Origin: Planctomycetota bacterium
GTDB taxonomy: Bacteria > Planctomycetota > GCA-002687715 > CAIWVZ01
Reading direction: 5' to 3'
DNA: 64,000 nt
Assembly: GCA_044222185.1 (NCBI GenBank)
Contig: JBGANV010000001.1
Coordinates: forward strand, 1,632,001-1,696,000
This document shows positions 1 through 51,963 of this stretch, piece by piece. The position numbers and the translations under genes are program-made. Each line of letters begins with the position of its first letter. Positions within the stretch are counted from its first letter, which is position 1. The notes beneath the pieces are model-generated. The model saw only the letters and a program-made list of their open reading frames with translations. It made no database searches and was not told the origin of the DNA.

Positions 1-586
1 CGCAAGTCTCGAGGCCGGCGCCGACGTCGTGTGCTTGAGTGGCGACAAGATGCTGGGCGGCCCGCAAGCCGGGATCATCCTCGGACGCAGTGCTCTCGTG
101 AAGGAGTGTCGATCGAGCCCCCTCGCTCGCGCGTTCCGGATCGACAAGCTGCGCGTTGCGGCACTGGAAGCGACCCTCACGTTGTTTCTCGACCCGAAGA
201 CGCTCGACCTGACGCACCCGGTCACCGACATGCTCCGGCGCAAGCCCGCCGACCTGCGCACTCGGGCCGAGGCTCTCGTGCGCGCGGTCGCGGGGTGCTG
301 CCCGCGCGATACCGTGGCGACCATCGTTCCGACGGACTCCGAGGCCGGCAGCGGTGCGCTCCCCGCCCTGCCCATTCCTTCGCTCGCCGTGGCGATCACC
401 TCCCCGCGCATGAGCCCCGATGCGCTCGCGCGCGCCTTGCGCCTCGAGCCCACGCCGTTGTTCACGAAAACCCGGGACGGCCACGTGCTTCTCGACGTCC
501 GCACGCTCGCCGACGACGAGGTGGAACTTGCAGCGACAGTCCTCGCGAGCGCCCTCCGCCGCGATTCGCGCGCGTCGGCGAATTGA
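1..586 (+). CDS. selA: L-seryl-tRNA(Sec) selenium transferase, 3' part (runs off window start)
   Basis: PLP-lysine motif SGDKMLGGPQAGII, then PLARAFRIDKL, EAGSGALP and LLDVRTL; directly followed by tRNA-Sec. Confidence 0.95.
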   Translation, partial: ASLEAGADVVCLSGDKMLGGPQAGIILGRSALVKECRSSPLARAFRIDKLRVAALEATLTLFLDPKTLDLTHPVTDMLRRKPADLRTRAEALVRAVAGCCPRDTVATIVPTDSEAGSGALPALPIPSLAVAITSPRMSPDALARALRLEPTPLFTKTRDGHVLLDVRTLADDEVELAATVLASALRRDSRASAN

Positions 587-624: not shown

Positions 625-719
625 GGGAGTGGATCGGTTCCTGGTGGACCGCCCGGTCTTCAAAACCGGTGTGACCGGCAAATAACCGGTCTGGTGGGTT
701 CGATTCCCATGCACTCCCG
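625..719 (+). tRNA. selC: tRNA-Sec (anticodon UCA)
   Basis: Acceptor GGGAGTG/CACTCCC + discriminator G; 6-bp D stem CGGTTC/GGACCG; anticodon stem CCGGT/ACCGG with TCA at 660-662; long variable arm GACCGG/CCGGTC; T loop TTCGATT; CCA not encoded; adjacent to selA. Confidence 0.96.
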
Positions 720-46286: not shown

Positions 46287-49200
46287 TCACTTGGGCCGCG
46301 ACGTGGGACGTGTGTCCGTCGTGTTCGCGAGCTGCCAACGCTGCGTGGGCCAGCGATCGCACACGAAAACCAGTGCGACGCCCTGTTCCGCGGCGTCGGC
46401 CGGCACCTCGATGCTCACGACGGGAGAGGTCTCCCCGGGCGCGATCGAGGCCACCGTGTGCACGACCTCGTACGCGGGCTCCGATTCCCCGAGCGCAAGC
46501 CCCGCCAGGATCCGCCCAGGACCCGTCGGTTGATCGCCGTCGTTCTGCAACGCGAACTGGATACGCGCATGGTGCGTTGCATCGGGCGGCAGAGCGACGA
46601 ATCCGATCGGTGTGATCCGAGGCCGACGCGTCCGAACCCGGACCGACTTCAGCGTGACGCCCGCGTTCCTGGACTCGACGCGGATCTCCACCCTCTCGTC
46701 CGCAGGGCGCGACTCCGTCGACGGGGCGAGGATGCGCGTGATGCGGAGCCTCCGCTCGACGACTCCATCGATCACACCGATGGTGGGCACAGGCTCCACG
46801 AGTACACCAGGCGCCCCGTTCGTGACGGCGCTGACGTGGACCTCCAATGCAGGGTTGGCCGTCGTGTCGTGGATGAAGAGAGAAATCTCCGCACCATCCC
46901 GGTCGCAGTCGTCCAGTTCCACGTCCGTGGCGTCCACCGTGAGCGTCGTCGACCCGCCTGCCGGCGGCGCGGCGTACGTCACGGCACCCTCGGCGCCAGG
47001 CTGCGACGTCACGATGCGACTCCAGCCCGAGTGCGTCGCCTGGTCGCCACTCCGCAGCATCCAATGGCCGTCCCGCGTCACCGCGCCCGAGAGCGTCCTG
47101 GACGTGGCCTCGCGCGGCAGCACCCATTGCAACGTCCCGTCCTCGTGACCGCTGACGAACATGGCCAAGCCGCGCGAGCAGGCCGTCGTGGAGCCATGCC
47201 CGAGGAATGCCCGGCGTCGCGACGCGTCGTCCACCCACACGCTGCCATCGGCGGACACCGAGTCGAGGGCAGTCGCGCCAGCGAGGGCGACGTGGACGAC
47301 GGCCGACGTGTGTCGCCGCTCCTGGAACGTCGTTCGGCGCATGGCCAGATCGCAGACGGCGACCGTACCGTCGACGCATCCGACCGCGAGACGCGCGCCG
47401 TCAGCGGAGAACGAGAGCGAGGAGACGGCGTCGCGCAGCGTGTCCGTCTGGAAGAGCAGCGCGCCGGTCGCGACCTCGATCACGACGGCGCTCCCCTCGC
47501 CACCCACGGCGAGCCGCGTGCCGTCGTCCGAACACGCGAGGACGTGCACGGCGCCGACGGGAACGGGCAGGTCCAGGAGACGAACGGCTGCGGAATCCAC
47601 GTCGACGATTGCAACGCGGCCGCGCGAAAGGCCCACGGCCACGCCCGCCTTCGCGCCGACGCGTGCCAGCGCCGTGAGGCGATCCTGGATGACGAGCGAC
47701 TTCCGCGGCATACCCGTCCTGGCGGCGAACGTTGCGAGCGTCCCGTCCGCCGTCGCGGCGACGACACGATCGTCAGCTTCGAGGTGAGCCAATCCGACGA
47801 TCTCCGCGTCGTGGTCCATCGTGTGGATCCAGGCCAGCCGCTGGTGGGGCGGCCCGTCCCGCTGCTCGGTGAACCAGAAACACGAGAGCACTCCGTCCCC
47901 GCTCCCTGCGACGACGCTTCCCTGGTGACTGAGGACCTCGACGGCGGTGATCGGGCGGATGACCTCGGGCAGCGTGCGCAGGACTCGCCCCGTGAGGTTG
48001 TCCAACAGTTTGATGGTGCGATCCGACGAGCAGGTCGCGATGACGCGGCCGTCCGGGCGCGGAGACGCCGCGTAGGCGGTCAACAGATGCGGCCGCACGG
48101 TCCAAAGCGGCGTGCCGTCCTCGGAAGACCACGCGCGAATCGTGCGGTCGGCGGAGGCGGACGTGATGACGCGGCCGTCGGGGGAGATGCCAATTCCCTC
48201 CACGCTTCCCTCGTGCCCTTGCAGCGTGCGGACCAGTTCCCCGCCCGGCAGCGCCCAGACCTGGATGAGTCCGCTCAGCGACCCTCCGGCGATCCAGGAA
48301 GCATGGGGACCGAACGCGATCGTGTGCACGTGATCGAGGGCGGGCCCACGGTGGATCGTTCGCACGAGACGGCCGTCGTTGGGATCCCACAGGCGCACCG
48401 TGTTGTCGGCTGCGGCGCTGGCGAGCGTGGTGCCATCACGCGAGAAGACGAGTGCCTTCAGGTCGGAGCGATGGCCCTCGAGCGTGCGCAGGAGTTCGTG
48501 GCTTTCGACGTCCCAGATGCGAACGGTCCGGTCTGCCGACCCGGACACGATCCACCGACCGGTCGGATCGAACGCCACGGCGGAGACGGGAGCCTGGTGG
48601 CCAACGAGCGTCGCCACGCGGCGGCCGTCGTCGACGCGCCACAGGCCCACCGTGCCATCCGCCGAGCCCGTCGCGATGAACGTCGACCGGGGATGGAACG
48701 CCACCGACGTCACCGTCTGCGTGTGCCCGACACAGACGACCTTCACCAGGCCCGACTCGGCGTCCCAGATTCGCGCCGTCTGGTCGCCCGAAGCCGATGC
48801 GAGAAGGCGGCCGTCGGGACTCCAGCACACGGCGAATACGTCCGCCTGATGACCTCGATCGAGGTCGTAGGCTGGTGCGGGCTCCGACTCCCAGAGGCAC
48901 GCCGTTCCGTCGACGCCGCAACTCACGAAGTGCTTGCCGGTCGGCGAAGCCGCGAGCGCCGTGACGCCGCCGTTGTGCGCGCGCCAGGCTGCGGTTCGCG
49001 TCCACGCCTCCCCGCTCGCGCCGTCGGACCGCATCCACGTCGCAACGAGGCCGTCGGCCGTGCCCGTCGCGGCATGGCGGCCATCGTCCCAGCCTGCCGC
49101 AGCACTCACCCAGCTCGTATGCCCGCCGAGCGGAGCGCCGCCCACGCCGTTTCGCCACGGGATCGCGCGCTTGTCCGAACCGCCCGTGAGATAGCCGGCG

Positions 49201-49859
49201 CCGCTGAGCGGCGCGATCGCGTTCACGGGCCCCTCGTGCGCCTTGCGTCGCACGGGCGCGGAAGCTCCGTCGAGCGCATGCTCGATCACGCTTCCATCCT
49301 CGCATCCAGCGACGAGACCCGCAGACGCGGAGCCGCTGCCGACGAACGCCAACGCCGTGCCGACGACCGGTGCCTTCGCCACGACCGTCTTCGCGGCCCC
49401 GGACGCGGCGTCCCACAACGCGATGCCCGAGGTCTCCGACGCCGTCGCCAGCCACGCTCCCGTCGAATCCACGGCAAGCTTCACCGGACCGTCCGTCGCA
49501 ACCTGTATGACGACGGGATCGGCCTTCGCCGCCACGTCGATGATGCGCACGACGCCGTTCGAGAGCCCGACCGCAACGCGACCGGACGGCAACCGCGCGA
49601 GTGACGTCACGGCCCACTCGAATCGCACCTGCGGCTCCGCCTGCGATTCGGTCACCGTCCACACGACGATCCGCCGATCGACCGCGAGCGCGACGTGATC
49701 CGAATCCAGCCACACGGCGTCAACCACGGGCGCTTCGAAGGGCCCCACGGCCCTGATCCGCGCCATCTGCGGTGCCCGCTCCTCCACTGCGACCGCGACT
49801 GCGGGGAACTGCCCGACGACCGCGCACGTCAGCGAGAGGAATGCAGCGGCGACCTTCAG
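46287..49859 (-). CDS. large WD40-repeat protein with C-terminal Ig-like domains; probable CTG start giving a signal peptide (alternative starts GTG 49787, ATG 49766)
   Basis: Many GH...V..VAF.PDG..LAS.S.D.T.R.WD repeats; the reading frame stays open upstream to CTG 49859, encoding MKVAAAFLSLTCAVVGQ. Confidence 0.85.
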   Translation of the reverse strand: MKVAAAFLSLTCAVVGQFPAVAVAVEERAPQMARIRAVGPFEAPVVDAVWLDSDHVALAVDRRIVVWTVTESQAEPQVRFEWAVTSLARLPSGRVAVGLSNGVVRIIDVAAKADPVVIQVATDGPVKLAVDSTGAWLATASETSGIALWDAASGAAKTVVAKAPVVGTALAFVGSGSASAGLVAGCEDGSVIEHALDGASAPVRRKAHEGPVNAIAPLSGAGYLTGGSDKRAIPWRNGVGGAPLGGHTSWVSAAAGWDDGRHAATGTADGLVATWMRSDGASGEAWTRTAAWRAHNGGVTALAASPTGKHFVSCGVDGTACLWESEPAPAYDLDRGHQADVFAVCWSPDGRLLASASGDQTARIWDAESGLVKVVCVGHTQTVTSVAFHPRSTFIATGSADGTVGLWRVDDGRRVATLVGHQAPVSAVAFDPTGRWIVSGSADRTVRIWDVESHELLRTLEGHRSDLKALVFSRDGTTLASAAADNTVRLWDPNDGRLVRTIHRGPALDHVHTIAFGPHASWIAGGSLSGLIQVWALPGGELVRTLQGHEGSVEGIGISPDGRVITSASADRTIRAWSSEDGTPLWTVRPHLLTAYAASPRPDGRVIATCSSDRTIKLLDNLTGRVLRTLPEVIRPITAVEVLSHQGSVVAGSGDGVLSCFWFTEQRDGPPHQRLAWIHTMDHDAEIVGLAHLEADDRVVAATADGTLATFAARTGMPRKSLVIQDRLTALARVGAKAGVAVGLSRGRVAIVDVDSAAVRLLDLPVPVGAVHVLACSDDGTRLAVGGEGSAVVIEVATGALLFQTDTLRDAVSSLSFSADGARLAVGCVDGTVAVCDLAMRRTTFQERRHTSAVVHVALAGATALDSVSADGSVWVDDASRRRAFLGHGSTTACSRGLAMFVSGHEDGTLQWVLPREATSRTLSGAVTRDGHWMLRSGDQATHSGWSRIVTSQPGAEGAVTYAAPPAGGSTTLTVDATDVELDDCDRDGAEISLFIHDTTANPALEVHVSAVTNGAPGVLVEPVPTIGVIDGVVERRLRITRILAPSTESRPADERVEIRVESRNAGVTLKSVRVRTRRPRITPIGFVALPPDATHHARIQFALQNDGDQPTGPGRILAGLALGESEPAYEVVHTVASIAPGETSPVVSIEVPADAAEQGVALVFVCDRWPTQRWQLANTTDTRPTSRPK

Positions 49860-50908
49860 CGCAAGCCCTCCAGGCAGCGCTTGAGGAACCCGAGCCGCGC
49901 GTCCACCTCCCGGCTCACGATCGTGTCCGGGTGCGCCTTCTTCAGAGCTTCCAGGTCTTCGATCACGTGTTCCCCGTCGTGAAGCGTCTGGAATCCACGA
50001 GTGGCCACGGACCGGACGTCCTTCTGCGCCTGGATGAGCCGGCGCGTCGTTTCGCTCCCCGCCATGGCTTCCTGAACGTTCTTCACGCGCTCCGCGAGAG
50101 GACCGCCTGCGACGACACGGACGATGGACTCGCAGCGCTCCGTCGCACCGAGCCAGTCACCCGCACGATAGGTTGCCTCGGCCGCACGAACCCGATTCTC
50201 GATCAACTGCTCGACCCAGCGGGTCACGTCCTGCATCGAGACCGTGGACGACGTCGCGTCCGTCGTGCGCGACTCGGCTGGCCCGGACTCGGCCGTCGAC
50301 GAACCCGCAGCGCGCGACTCGGCGCCTCGGCCTGCCAGCGTGCGTGCCGCCAGGAGATCGTCGGCCAGGATCGCCGTGCGAATCTCCTGTGTCTCCGCGG
50401 GCCAGTCGAACATCGGGACGGGCACCGCCCCCGGCAACGCCGCGCGGATCATCTCCTCGTTCAACCCCGATGGATGGCCCGCGTAGGCCACGTTGCCCGT
50501 CGCGTCCACCAGGACGGCGAACGGCAGGTCGAACACGTTGAATGGTCCCGCCAGTTCGAAGTCCGCGTCATAGGCGTAGGCGTAGCGCACCTTGCGCAGT
50601 TTCACCCACTGCTCCGTGTTCTCCTTGTAGCCGCCGGTCACGCCGACGATCGAGAGGCCCCGCCTGCCGTACTTGTCCTGCAAGGCGTTCAGCTTGGGAA
50701 CCTCTTCACCGCAAGGCGGTCACCAATACATGAAGAACTCGAGGAGCAGGGTCCGGCCCCGGAACTCCGCGAGTGTCTTCGCGCGCGTGTTGGCCCAGTC
50801 GTGCAGCCGTGCCGGGGGCAATGGGCTGCCGACGAGTTGCGCGGGCATGGCACAGGTCACCGCGATCACCGCGGCGCAAACGGCCGCTCCCTTCCGAAAA
50901 CCGATCAT
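49856..50908 (-). CDS. exported TlpA/redoxin-family selenoprotein (U63, UxxC) with helical C-terminal domain
   Basis: ORFs 50720-51073 and 49856-50683 share a frame and are separated only by TGA 50722-50720, giving GRTLLLEFFMYW-U-PPCGEEVPKLNALQDKY; cis-Pro DLPFAVLVDATG; selA/selC present. Confidence 0.9.
50682..50719 (-). promoter_or_regulatory. candidate bacterial SECIS element
   Basis: GG(U)GAA-GAGG-UUCCC hairpin at +10..+24 after UGA, with bulged U and G-rich loop; alternative fold AAGAGGUUC/GAACGCCUU; folded by eye. Confidence 0.5.
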
Positions 50909-51024
50909 GCCGACGTCCTTCCGTGGTTCGAGCGCGACCGTGGAGGCAGTCCGGGTGCCGAGTCGACCCACAGGCGGGGATTGTAGGGAGGCAGCCGCGC
51001 TCCGATCAACGTAAGCTTGCCGCC

Positions 51025-51963
51025 ATGCCGGAACTTCCGGACGTCGTCGTCTACGTCGAAGCGATCGAAGCACGGCTCGCCGGGCGCGTCATCGAACGCG
51101 TGCGCGTCCTGAGCCCGTTCGTCGTGCGGACGGTCGAACCGCCGATCCTCGCGCTGGAGTCGCGCCGGGTCCTCGGGGTGCGACGACTCGGGAAACGCAT
51201 CGTGATCGCAGTGGAAGGGGACCTGTTCCTCGTCGTTCACCTGATGATCTCCGGGCGCTTCCGGTGGGAGCGACCCGACGCCAAGGTCAACCGCCGGCTA
51301 TGGCTCGCGACGTTCACCTGCGAAACGGGGATGCTGGTGCTGACCGAGGCGAGCACGAAGCGACGCGCCTCGATCCACGTGGTCGACGGGGCGGCAGCAC
51401 TCGCGCTGCACGACCCGGGCGGCCAGGATGTCCTCATCGCGACGCAGGATTCGTTCCGCGCGGCCCTCCGGCGCGAGAACCGGACACTCAAGCGAGCGCT
51501 CACCGATCCGCGCCTCTTCGACGGCATCGGGAACGCGTACTCCGACGAGATCCTCCACGCGGCGCGCCTTTCGCCACTCGCGCTCACGCGTTCGCTCGAC
51601 GACGAAGAAGCCGAGCGGCTGCGCGTCGCGGCGACCGCGACGCTCACGCGCTGGACCCAGCGCCTGCGAACCGAAACCGGAGCCGACTTCCCGACGAAGG
51701 TCACGGCCTTCCGCCCGGACATGGCCGTCCACGGCCGGTACGGAAAGGCGTGCCCGGTCTGCGACACGCTCGTCCAGCGCATCGTCTACGCCGAGAACGA
51801 GGCGAACTACTGCCCCCGTTGTCAGACTCGAGGGAAGCTCCTCGCCGATCGTTCGCTCTCGCGGCTGCTCCACGAGGATTGGCCGAAGACGATCGACGAA
51901 CTCGAATCGCAGATGCCGGCCGCGACGCCCCAGATGCGAAATCGGCCTACGGGCGACCGCTGA
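51025..51963 (+). CDS. Fpg/Nei family DNA glycosylase/AP lyase
   Basis: N-terminal MPELPDV, RRLGK, H2TH GIGNAYSDEILH, zinc finger CPVC...CPRCQ. Confidence 0.93.
   Translation: MPELPDVVVYVEAIEARLAGRVIERVRVLSPFVVRTVEPPILALESRRVLGVRRLGKRIVIAVEGDLFLVVHLMISGRFRWERPDAKVNRRLWLATFTCETGMLVLTEASTKRRASIHVVDGAAALALHDPGGQDVLIATQDSFRAALRRENRTLKRALTDPRLFDGIGNAYSDEILHAARLSPLALTRSLDDEEAERLRVAATATLTRWTQRLRTETGADFPTKVTAFRPDMAVHGRYGKACPVCDTLVQRIVYAENEANYCPRCQTRGKLLADRSLSRLLHEDWPKTIDELESQMPAATPQMRNRPTGDR

Follow-up and report, generated by a model that had tools for sequence, protein, structure and literature searches.

A TGA-interrupted frame in a Planctomycetota genome very probably encodes an exported TlpA-like U-x-x-C selenoprotein with an additional C-terminal domain

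We analysed a stretch of 64,000 nucleotides of a Planctomycetota genome (assembly GCA_044222185.1, contig JBGANV010000001.1, positions 1,632,001 to 1,696,000), hereafter the window, and focus on a redoxin gene on its reverse strand that is interrupted by an in-frame TGA. Our analysis of the sequence makes it very probable that this locus constitutes a single gene encoding an exported selenoprotein of 350 residues, in which the UGA at 50720–50722 would be decoded as selenocysteine (Sec, U); the evidence from the gene itself, from its relatives and from the selenocysteine machinery of the genome strongly supports such decoding. The parts of the gene that bear most directly on this reading are given below, with residue numbers of the read-through protein; alignment A1 comprises 19 full-length members of the family (321–350 amino acids).

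49856..50908, (-) strand: whole predicted selenoprotein gene, 350 codons plus the TGA stop at 49856-49858, from translation
50837..50908, (-) strand: predicted signal peptide, residues 1-24 (MIGFRKG...CAMPA, followed by Q), from pattern reading
50471..50833, (-) strand: TlpA/ResA-like redoxin (thioredoxin-fold) domain, residues 26-146; PF00578, PF08534 and PF13905 above their cut-offs, PDB matches to ResA, DsbE and TlpA
50720..50722, (-) strand: UGA codon for putative Sec63, nucleophilic first position of the U-P-P-C redox motif
50711..50713, (-) strand: Cys66, predicted resolving cysteine of U-x-x-C; invariant column C66 in alignment A1
50522..50524, (-) strand: Pro129 (in DLPFAV), aligned with the cis-proline loop of thioredoxin-fold proteins; invariant in A1 and matching LP of ResA 4nmu

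The TGA is the sole internal stop of the 350-residue frame, which has no other defect and reads ...LLLEFFMYW-U-PPCGEEVPKLNAL... around that codon. Translation table 11 splits it into an open reading frame (ORF) at 50720..51073 (-) and a 275-residue ORF at 49856..50683 (-) that starts with TTG. As long open frames are common on all strands of the window DNA (67% G+C), the open frame by itself is little evidence. A single Pfam redoxin match, however, covers residues 26-146 and extends over both sides of the TGA: AhpC-TSA (PF00578) matches at E 1.8e-15 (57.4 bits vs. a gathering score of 26), Redoxin (PF08534) at E 3.9e-13 (49.9 bits vs. 26.6) and Thioredoxin_8 (PF13905) at E 5.4e-8 (33.5 bits vs. 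27). When the sequence is aligned with chains of known structure, the residue opposite U63 is the first Cys of WCKPC in ResA 4nmu and that of WCPPC in 3or5; the use of Sec for Cys in UxxC thioredoxin-fold proteins is textbook knowledge.

The N-terminus combines K/R residues, a hydrophobic stretch of ten residues (mean Kyte-Doolittle 2.86) and an A-x-A site before Q (small-x-small before Q), and the same signal-peptide-like pattern is found in 20/20 family members examined, in both cases by pattern reading only. The original prediction, made from the letters of the window alone, had proposed one frame broken only by a TGA at the position of the first Cys, headed by a signal peptide and carrying the cis-Pro strand of TlpA: the frame is borne out by the translation, the Pfam match and the ResA alignment; the predicted signal peptide has its pattern in the window protein and in all 20 members; and P129 aligns with LP in the cis-Pro loop of ResA 4nmu. 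The gene starts with ATG at 50908, and its relatives place their start codons 57–64 codons ahead of the Sec codon or its equivalent (68 in locus L023). Upstream of the ATG lie two candidate expression signals:

50916..50922, (-) strand: Shine-Dalgarno-like GGAAGGA, 7 nt before the ATG, read from the sequence
50980..51009, (-) strand: sigma-70-like promoter match TTGATC-18-TACAAT from a consensus scan (1 site vs. 0.1 expected), a consensus match only

The TGA is neither peculiar to this assembly nor to this genome. Run X2, which belongs to a different study, contains a 613-nt contig that spans 50360–50972 with zero differences and the same TGA, and because it carries the identical sequence, the codon has been assembled independently; runs X6 and X8 cover parts of the stretch outside the TGA site and are uninformative on it. 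The organism occurs in sludge and bioreactor communities. Among 41 genomes searched (the window's own genome, G000, and 40 relatives), 38 gave a match at E ≤ 0.001, and at 27 matching loci the site is occupied by TGA in 18, by Cys in 6 and otherwise in 3. We reconstructed 20 genes (188–350 codons); each of the 18 TGA forms among them contains a single U, at residue 58–64. In the two closest pairs the ratio of nonsynonymous to synonymous differences (pN/pS) is 0.06 and 0.10 over the 36 codons before the TGA vs. 0.06 and 0.16 over the 36 codons after it; since the values before the TGA are as low as those after it, the N-terminal part is kept as protein.

The family extends well beyond these relatives. 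Searching 401 genomes sampled across the phylum of the window with the A1 profile (E ≤ 1e-30) returned a match in 202 of them, or in 123 of the 243 high-quality genomes and 152 of the 288 genera. Among the 150 matches listed (183 further matches lie beyond those), 128 contain an in-frame TGA, 19 no stop and 3 only TAG or TAA; and the 30 loci fetched from this search, some of which are re-fetches of places already seen, have U at the site in 28 cases and Asp in 2.

The genome also contains several genes of the same kind. Two full-length paralogues have TGA in the same alignment column (C1:395509, 36% identity; C4:240587, 31%), and a motif scan found eight TlpA-like genes with U-x-P-C, the window gene included, alongside eight with C-x-P-C, so that half of the organism's TlpA-like redoxins appear, from sequence, to be selenoproteins. 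The other seven U-x-P-C genes lie at C1:395665, C1:644579, C4:240737, C5:71310, C7:47321, C12:29508 and C14:22143 of G000, and loci L002 and L003 hold two of them. When translated, the C12 and C14 paralogues display the reverse architecture: a signal peptide, a helical N-terminal domain of 220–260 residues and then the redoxin.

The genome is equipped to decode UGA as Sec. Two of the components are in the window itself, with the 3' part of selA directly upstream of the tRNA-Sec gene:

2..586, (+) strand: 3' part of selA, the selenocysteine synthase gene, truncated at the window edge; PF03841 match at E 7.4e-40 over profile positions 200-366 of 367
625..719, (+) strand: tRNA-Sec (selC), anticodon UCA; ARAGORN, and Rfam RF01852 at 74.7 bits vs. 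a gathering score of 47

The other two are elsewhere in the genome: selB at G000:C1:529551-531440 (TIGR00475, 330 bits vs. a cut-off of 242, with the SelB wing domain matched) and selD at G000:C14:427704-428624 (370 bits vs. a cut-off of 125). The selD gene (L010:1501-2421) is itself a selenoprotein gene, with an in-frame TGA in its glycine-rich loop (...SPGGG-U-ACKIGP...). Outside such sites TGA is an ordinary stop, since it ends 13/20 family genes at the expected length, the window gene included, and is absent in frame from the long neighbouring genes of the window. Across the 401 genomes SelA is found in 290 (173 of the 243 high-quality genomes), so large a share being unusual for the Sec trait. 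Within the matches listed, 113 genomes have a TGA form, and SelA is present in 111 of these, vs. 290/401 overall; the two exceptions are drafts (G080, 80% complete in 350 contigs; G164, 92% complete in 340 contigs). SelA occurs in 9 of the 13 genomes whose listed forms are without TGA and not in the other 4. The original prediction had placed selA and tRNA-Sec(UCA) in the window, and PF03841, ARAGORN and Rfam agree; the conditions that it had named as refuting, namely homologues with neither Cys nor TGA at this codon (TGA or Cys is found there), a genome lacking selB or selD (both are present elsewhere in it) and an assembly error (the independent contig has the same TGA), did not refute the selenoprotein reading.

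On these grounds the gene is very probably a genuine selenoprotein gene that standard annotation mis-calls, and the same apparently holds for most of its family. The A1 profile was searched exhaustively against 1.84 billion cluster representatives, and it is on this search, not on a word-indexed protein search that gave 3 matches, that our description of the family is based. At E ≤ 1e-30, 1,129 representatives match; the best 150 of the 1,129 comprise:

73: gene calls whose start lies 2-28 residues past the Sec column and which include the C-terminal domain
35: full-length two-domain CxxC proteins
11: full-length proteins with a degenerate site (SxxC 3, DxxC 2, CxxS 2, GxxS 1, YxxC 1, ExxS 1, SxxS 1)
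27: redoxin-only or other architectures with CxxC
2: longer proteins
2: unclassified

Two sets of the truncated database rows agree in full with TGA forms whose DNA we had verified; one truncated relative (NCBI MCA9319362.1) is filed as 'redoxin domain-containing protein'; and the public protein collection holds, for the window locus, only the 275-residue downstream ORF. That annotation would split the gene had been foreseen, and the collection entry, together with the 73 late-starting representatives, bears this out. The family is large, mostly made up of TGA forms and routinely truncated by public gene calls. The named records that hold its members are Planctomycetota metagenome-assembled genomes.

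Sec and Cys alternate within the family. A FastTree phylogeny of 149 two-domain members, with 31 verified Sec forms and 35 Cys forms, requires at least 9 changes between Sec and Cys (shuffled labels: mean 22.4, minimum 16), from which we conclude that the two residues were exchanged repeatedly. In this tree the window protein and the other W-U-P-P-C forms, L012 and L013, make up one group (support 97). A third state occurs in one genus of the window's own taxonomic family, where the redox site has Asp (...YEYFTTG-D-QQC...; L022:1498-2472 and L023:417-1403, also L101, L102, L034 and L035), with the second Cys and the C-terminal domain kept. IMG labels the cluster of this protein, which comprises 20 sequences, 'peroxiredoxin'; the protein itself may be a derivative with a single Cys or with no redox role.

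A selenocysteine insertion sequence (SECIS) is the weakest point of the case, the window gene having, unlike its relatives with their clear hairpins ~27–63 nt past the UGA, only a non-canonical, unconvincing candidate:

50661..50687, (-) strand: candidate SECIS hairpin, 33-59 nt after the UGA; CGCCU-u-GC / GC-AGGCG, 7 pairs, one bulge and a 12-nt loop containing GU

RNAfold gives this hairpin -12.1 kcal/mol; counted from the U of the UGA, its pairs run from C35-G61 to C42-G55. We compared the native RNA 27–63 nt after the UGA with synonymous recodings of the same codons, and the window gene folded more stably than these, scoring z -1.97, -2.06 and -1.61 in three runs. For the 18 TGA forms the mean z of this stretch is -1.67, with 9/18 below -1.64, vs. 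a mean of -0.10 and 6/55 below -1.64 for 55 Cys-form redoxins (Mann-Whitney p = 5e-4, a value that is overstated because the relatives are not independent); among 31 distinct TGA forms the mean is -1.56 and the median -1.79, with 16/31 below -1.64. The Cys-form controls came from a contig scan with a back-translated pattern having Cys (or Asp) at the site, which could return only forms without TGA. Closer to the UGA, at the E. coli-like SECIS position 3–36 nt after it, there is no excess structure (mean z -0.09 for TGA forms vs. -0.34 for Cys forms), and hairpins drawn there by hand were dropped.

Individual hairpins can be followed within parts of the family, and an RNAalifold run on all 18 TGA forms gave no consensus structure. 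The main-group relatives share CGAGCU(UC)-loop-(GA)AGUUCG, formed from Asn-Glu-Leu...Lys-Phe codons, in which 78.6% of cells are paired vs. 31–45% with the partners slid; three of its pairs have double changes, which is not beyond shuffles. The sub-family of the C4 paralogue has CUCAAUC-AGUU-GAUUGAG, 100% paired and with 2 compensatory pairs. Four paralogues of the window's genome (C5:71310, C7:47321, C12:29508 and C14:22143) share the perfect hairpin CACGAGC-GGUC-GCUCGUG, formed from His-Glu-Arg-Ser-Leu-Val codons at ~27–44 nt from the U of the UGA, which is a much clearer SECIS candidate than that of the window gene. The usual bacterial spacing from UGA to the SECIS loop is ~16–37 nt, and the loops described here lie at or beyond the upper end of this range.

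Several observations weigh against the selenoprotein reading or against parts of it. With respect to the RNA, the window gene fits the main hairpin register of its relatives only in part; the 12-nt loop of its best hairpin starts ~41 nt after the UGA, whereas in 5/7 of the genome's other U-x-P-C genes a perfect stem of 7 bp carries a GGUC or AGUU tetraloop nearer the UGA; shuffling dinucleotides over the 81 nt around the UGA gave an unremarkable result (z -0.28); no SECIS-type match was obtained from Rfam at E ≤ 10; and statistics across relatives overstate the support, because these sequences are not independent. The sole RNA match is one 151-nt contig (50548–50698) from a metatranscriptome library (run X19), whose presence is not proof of transcription. 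As to the protein, the export call is a pattern reading of the N-terminus, and its function, reductant and substrate would be assigned from family resemblance; a comparison of 14 loci found no conserved gene neighbourhood to help with function.

The competing explanations differ in what they make of the UGA. If it terminates translation, the locus would encode a 62-residue N-terminal peptide and a separate 275-residue protein from the TTG at 50683, consisting of a redoxin domain without the start of its active-site helix plus the C-terminal domain. This is what translation table 11 and the public protein collection contain, and the weak SECIS of the window gene fits it, but the 275-residue product would be devoid of a signal peptide, of strand beta-1 and of both redox residues; the truncated calls of relatives start at scattered positions 2–28 residues past the Sec column, a typical artefact of gene callers; purifying selection acts as strongly on the 36 codons upstream as on the downstream part; and full-length Cys forms of the same architecture make up 35 of the best 150 representatives. 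We consider termination highly improbable. Slightly less probable still is read-through with a residue other than Sec, either by near-cognate decoding as Cys or Trp or by a reassigned TGA: the inserted residue is not distinguishable from sequence alone, yet TGA serves as the stop of 13/20 family genes, including the window gene, the genome has the complete selABCD set, TGA forms occur almost only in SelA-positive genomes (111/113 among the matches listed), and the site is where Sec replaces Cys in known UxxC selenoproteins.

A pseudogene, arisen by a TGC/TGT-to-TGA nonsense mutation, or an error of assembly at the TGA would demand only a one-base change in a Cys codon, and is effectively refuted, by the identical sequence in a contig of another study; by TGA at the same codon in 28/30 fetched loci and in frame in 128 of the 150 matches listed; by the lack of further frame defects and the purifying selection on both halves; and by the seven more U-x-P-C redoxin genes of the same genome. 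Decoding of the UGA as selenocysteine in a single 350-residue protein is the reading that we prefer.

The part of the protein that sets it apart from ordinary redoxins is its C-terminal domain of ~180 residues, which in the window protein also holds an insert:

49859..50410, (-) strand: C-terminal domain, residues 167-350, kept across the family (alignments A1 and A4), without notable Pfam or PDB match
50243..50332, (-) strand: low-complexity Ser/Thr/Ala/Gly-rich insert, about residues 193-222, the sole row filling these columns of A1

The insert (GRGAESRAAGSSTAESGPAESRTTDATSST; ~30 residues) lies inside the C-terminal domain, is missing from all 18 aligned relatives and is not a tandem DNA repeat. 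The composition of the domain suggests that it is helical: helix-favouring residues account for 51% and Pro plus Gly for 9% in the window protein, and across the family A/E/L/K/R/Q/M range from 51 to 69% and Pro plus Gly from 5 to 12%. No Pfam family was assigned to the domain of the window protein (best E 0.05, to an unrelated holin), and against the PDB there was no meaningful sequence match (the best, a small helical protein, had E 0.0024). The original prediction had described an extra helical, TPR-like domain; the extra domain stands, its helical character is a matter of composition alone, and the likeness to TPR is not supported. The window protein has no TPR match even at E ≤ 10, and no 34-residue repeat or other convincing internal repeat was found when thirds of the domain were compared by hhalign (probabilities 22%, 14% and 0.4%). 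Weak Pfam matches in the C-terminal domain of relatives are to TPR_16 in 2/16 (best E 0.018), Com_YlbF in 2/16 and EAD11 in 3/16.

The following course of events can be proposed. SelB with Sec-tRNA(Sec) would recode the UGA at 50720–50722 as selenocysteine, probably guided by an mRNA hairpin ~30–60 nt downstream of it, and the product would have a cleavable signal peptide, a TlpA/ResA/DsbE-type domain with the active site W-U63-P-P-C66 and the family-specific C-terminal domain. By analogy with TlpA and ResA, its activity may be that of an extracytoplasmic thiol-disulfide reductase or isomerase: the disulfide of a substrate would be attacked by Sec63, or Sec63 would form a selenenylsulfide with Cys66; Cys66 would resolve the mixed selenenylsulfide; and a membrane protein of the CcdA/DsbD type would re-reduce the enzyme. 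One gene for a DsbD_TM protein is present in the genome (G000:C7:834867-835496). Selecting or holding the substrate, and so giving specificity, is the probable role of the C-terminal domain.

The surroundings of the gene are as follows. A WD40/beta-propeller repeat gene (46287-49787, (-) strand; 1,166 residues) follows the redoxin gene on the same strand after 69 nt, and the stretch between them contains no terminator-like site. A functional link between the two was considered and rejected, as a WD40 gene also adjoins the L013 orthologue but there divergently, so that the orientations differ. On the other side, a gene for a Fpg/Nei-type DNA glycosylase (51025-51963, (+) strand) is divergent from the redoxin gene. 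No cytochrome c maturation or copper-chaperone gene adjoins the redoxin gene. At the far end of the window, a DinB/mycothiol-S-transferase-like gene (759-1295, (+) strand) directly follows the tRNA-Sec gene.

Our findings bear first on annotation. The window gene, and apparently most of its family, is represented in public entries by a truncated "redoxin domain-containing protein" or "hypothetical protein" without signal peptide and without both catalytic residues, and a model built for the family, with a column for Sec, would set the gene calls right in about half of the phylum's sampled genomes. Moreover, the presence of SelA in 290/401 genomes, together with Sec in half of the TlpA-like envelope redoxins of one genome, points to heavy use of selenium in the extracytoplasmic thiol-disulfide chemistry of this phylum; to our knowledge, such use is rarely discussed for exported proteins. 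The finding does not reveal a new mechanism.

Whether the protein represents something beyond the known families depends on how these are defined. CnoX/YbbN, which offers a lead only, combines a thioredoxin domain with a helical TPR domain that holds clients, is cytoplasmic and has no Sec; the PDB and Pfam searches with our C-terminal domain gave nothing significant, and no sequence link to CnoX was found. Among selenoproteins, the passages of PMC1088965 (2005) on the Sargasso Sea count 22 sequences of Prx-like UXXC and 4 of thiol-disulfide isomerase-like UXXC proteins, and 'Prx-like thiol:disulfide oxidoreductase' (PF00578, UxxC) and 'thiol-disulfide isomerase-like protein' (PF13905/cd02966, UxxC) figure as predicted prokaryotic selenoprotein families in the corresponding parts of the work of Zhang, Gladyshev and co-workers (PMC1088965; PMC9312934, 2022; PMC13188914, 2026). 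The window protein resembles these families, as they are described there, in its Pfam domains, in a UxxC motif with Sec first and in the existence of Cys homologues. The novelty that the original prediction had attached to it has to be lowered correspondingly, for UxxC thioredoxin-fold selenoproteins of the same Pfam class have been listed, in these passages, since 2005; by the domain-plus-motif definitions the window protein belongs to the already known UxxC redoxin selenoproteins.

Those families are defined by domain and motif, and their descriptions, with which our comparison was made, hold no mention of a C-terminal domain, a signal peptide or Planctomycetota in the parts concerned; the string 'Planctomycet' has 0 occurrences in the 2026 review (PMC13188914), selenoproteins are noted in Planctomycetes in a passage of PMC4807772, and full-text literature searches found no paper on the two-domain family; in one of them, the word Planctomycetota is absent from all 15 results listed. 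We therefore put forward only tentatively, as a view that is rather doubtful than probable, that this is an unrecognised selenoprotein family: an exported, TlpA-like U-x-x-C redoxin with a new C-terminal domain, spread over about half of the phylum's sampled genomes, with Sec prevailing, a substrate-holding module and a SECIS far from the UGA. If this were true, the C-terminal domain would be that substrate-holding module and the protein a periplasmic, selenium-dependent 'chaperedoxin', and its SECIS loops, ~33–50 nt downstream, would lie farther from the UGA than in the classical E. coli model.

Profile models place the protein near, and outside, the named groups. For the window protein no NCBIfam model reaches its cut-off, with ResA (NF002854) at 54 of 170, TlpA (NF047696) at 45 of 230, DsbE at 32 of 123 and DsbE (NF011941) at 28 of 359; none of the 19 members has a dedicated model, and their NCBIfam matches are to generic domains (best E 3.4e-22, to ResA). 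NF041054, a ResA-like WAxxUGC selenoprotein, is of similar length (354 profile positions) and draws weak matches from 13/19 family members; the window protein differs from it in scoring 41.4 bits vs. a cut-off of 300, in having U-P-P-C and not U-G-C, and in aligning only over residues 25–206. The closest known structures are the TlpA/ResA/CcmG(DsbE) reductases (4nmu, 1st9, 1jfu, 3gl3 and 2b1k), which are the best PDB matches, with a profile E of 2.9e-26 to ResA 4nmu. With them the window protein shares an aligned W-C-x-x-C position and cis-Pro, a predicted N-terminal export or anchor signal and a DsbD_TM partner in the genome; unlike them, it would have Sec for the first Cys, and it carries an extra C-terminal domain for which they have no counterpart.

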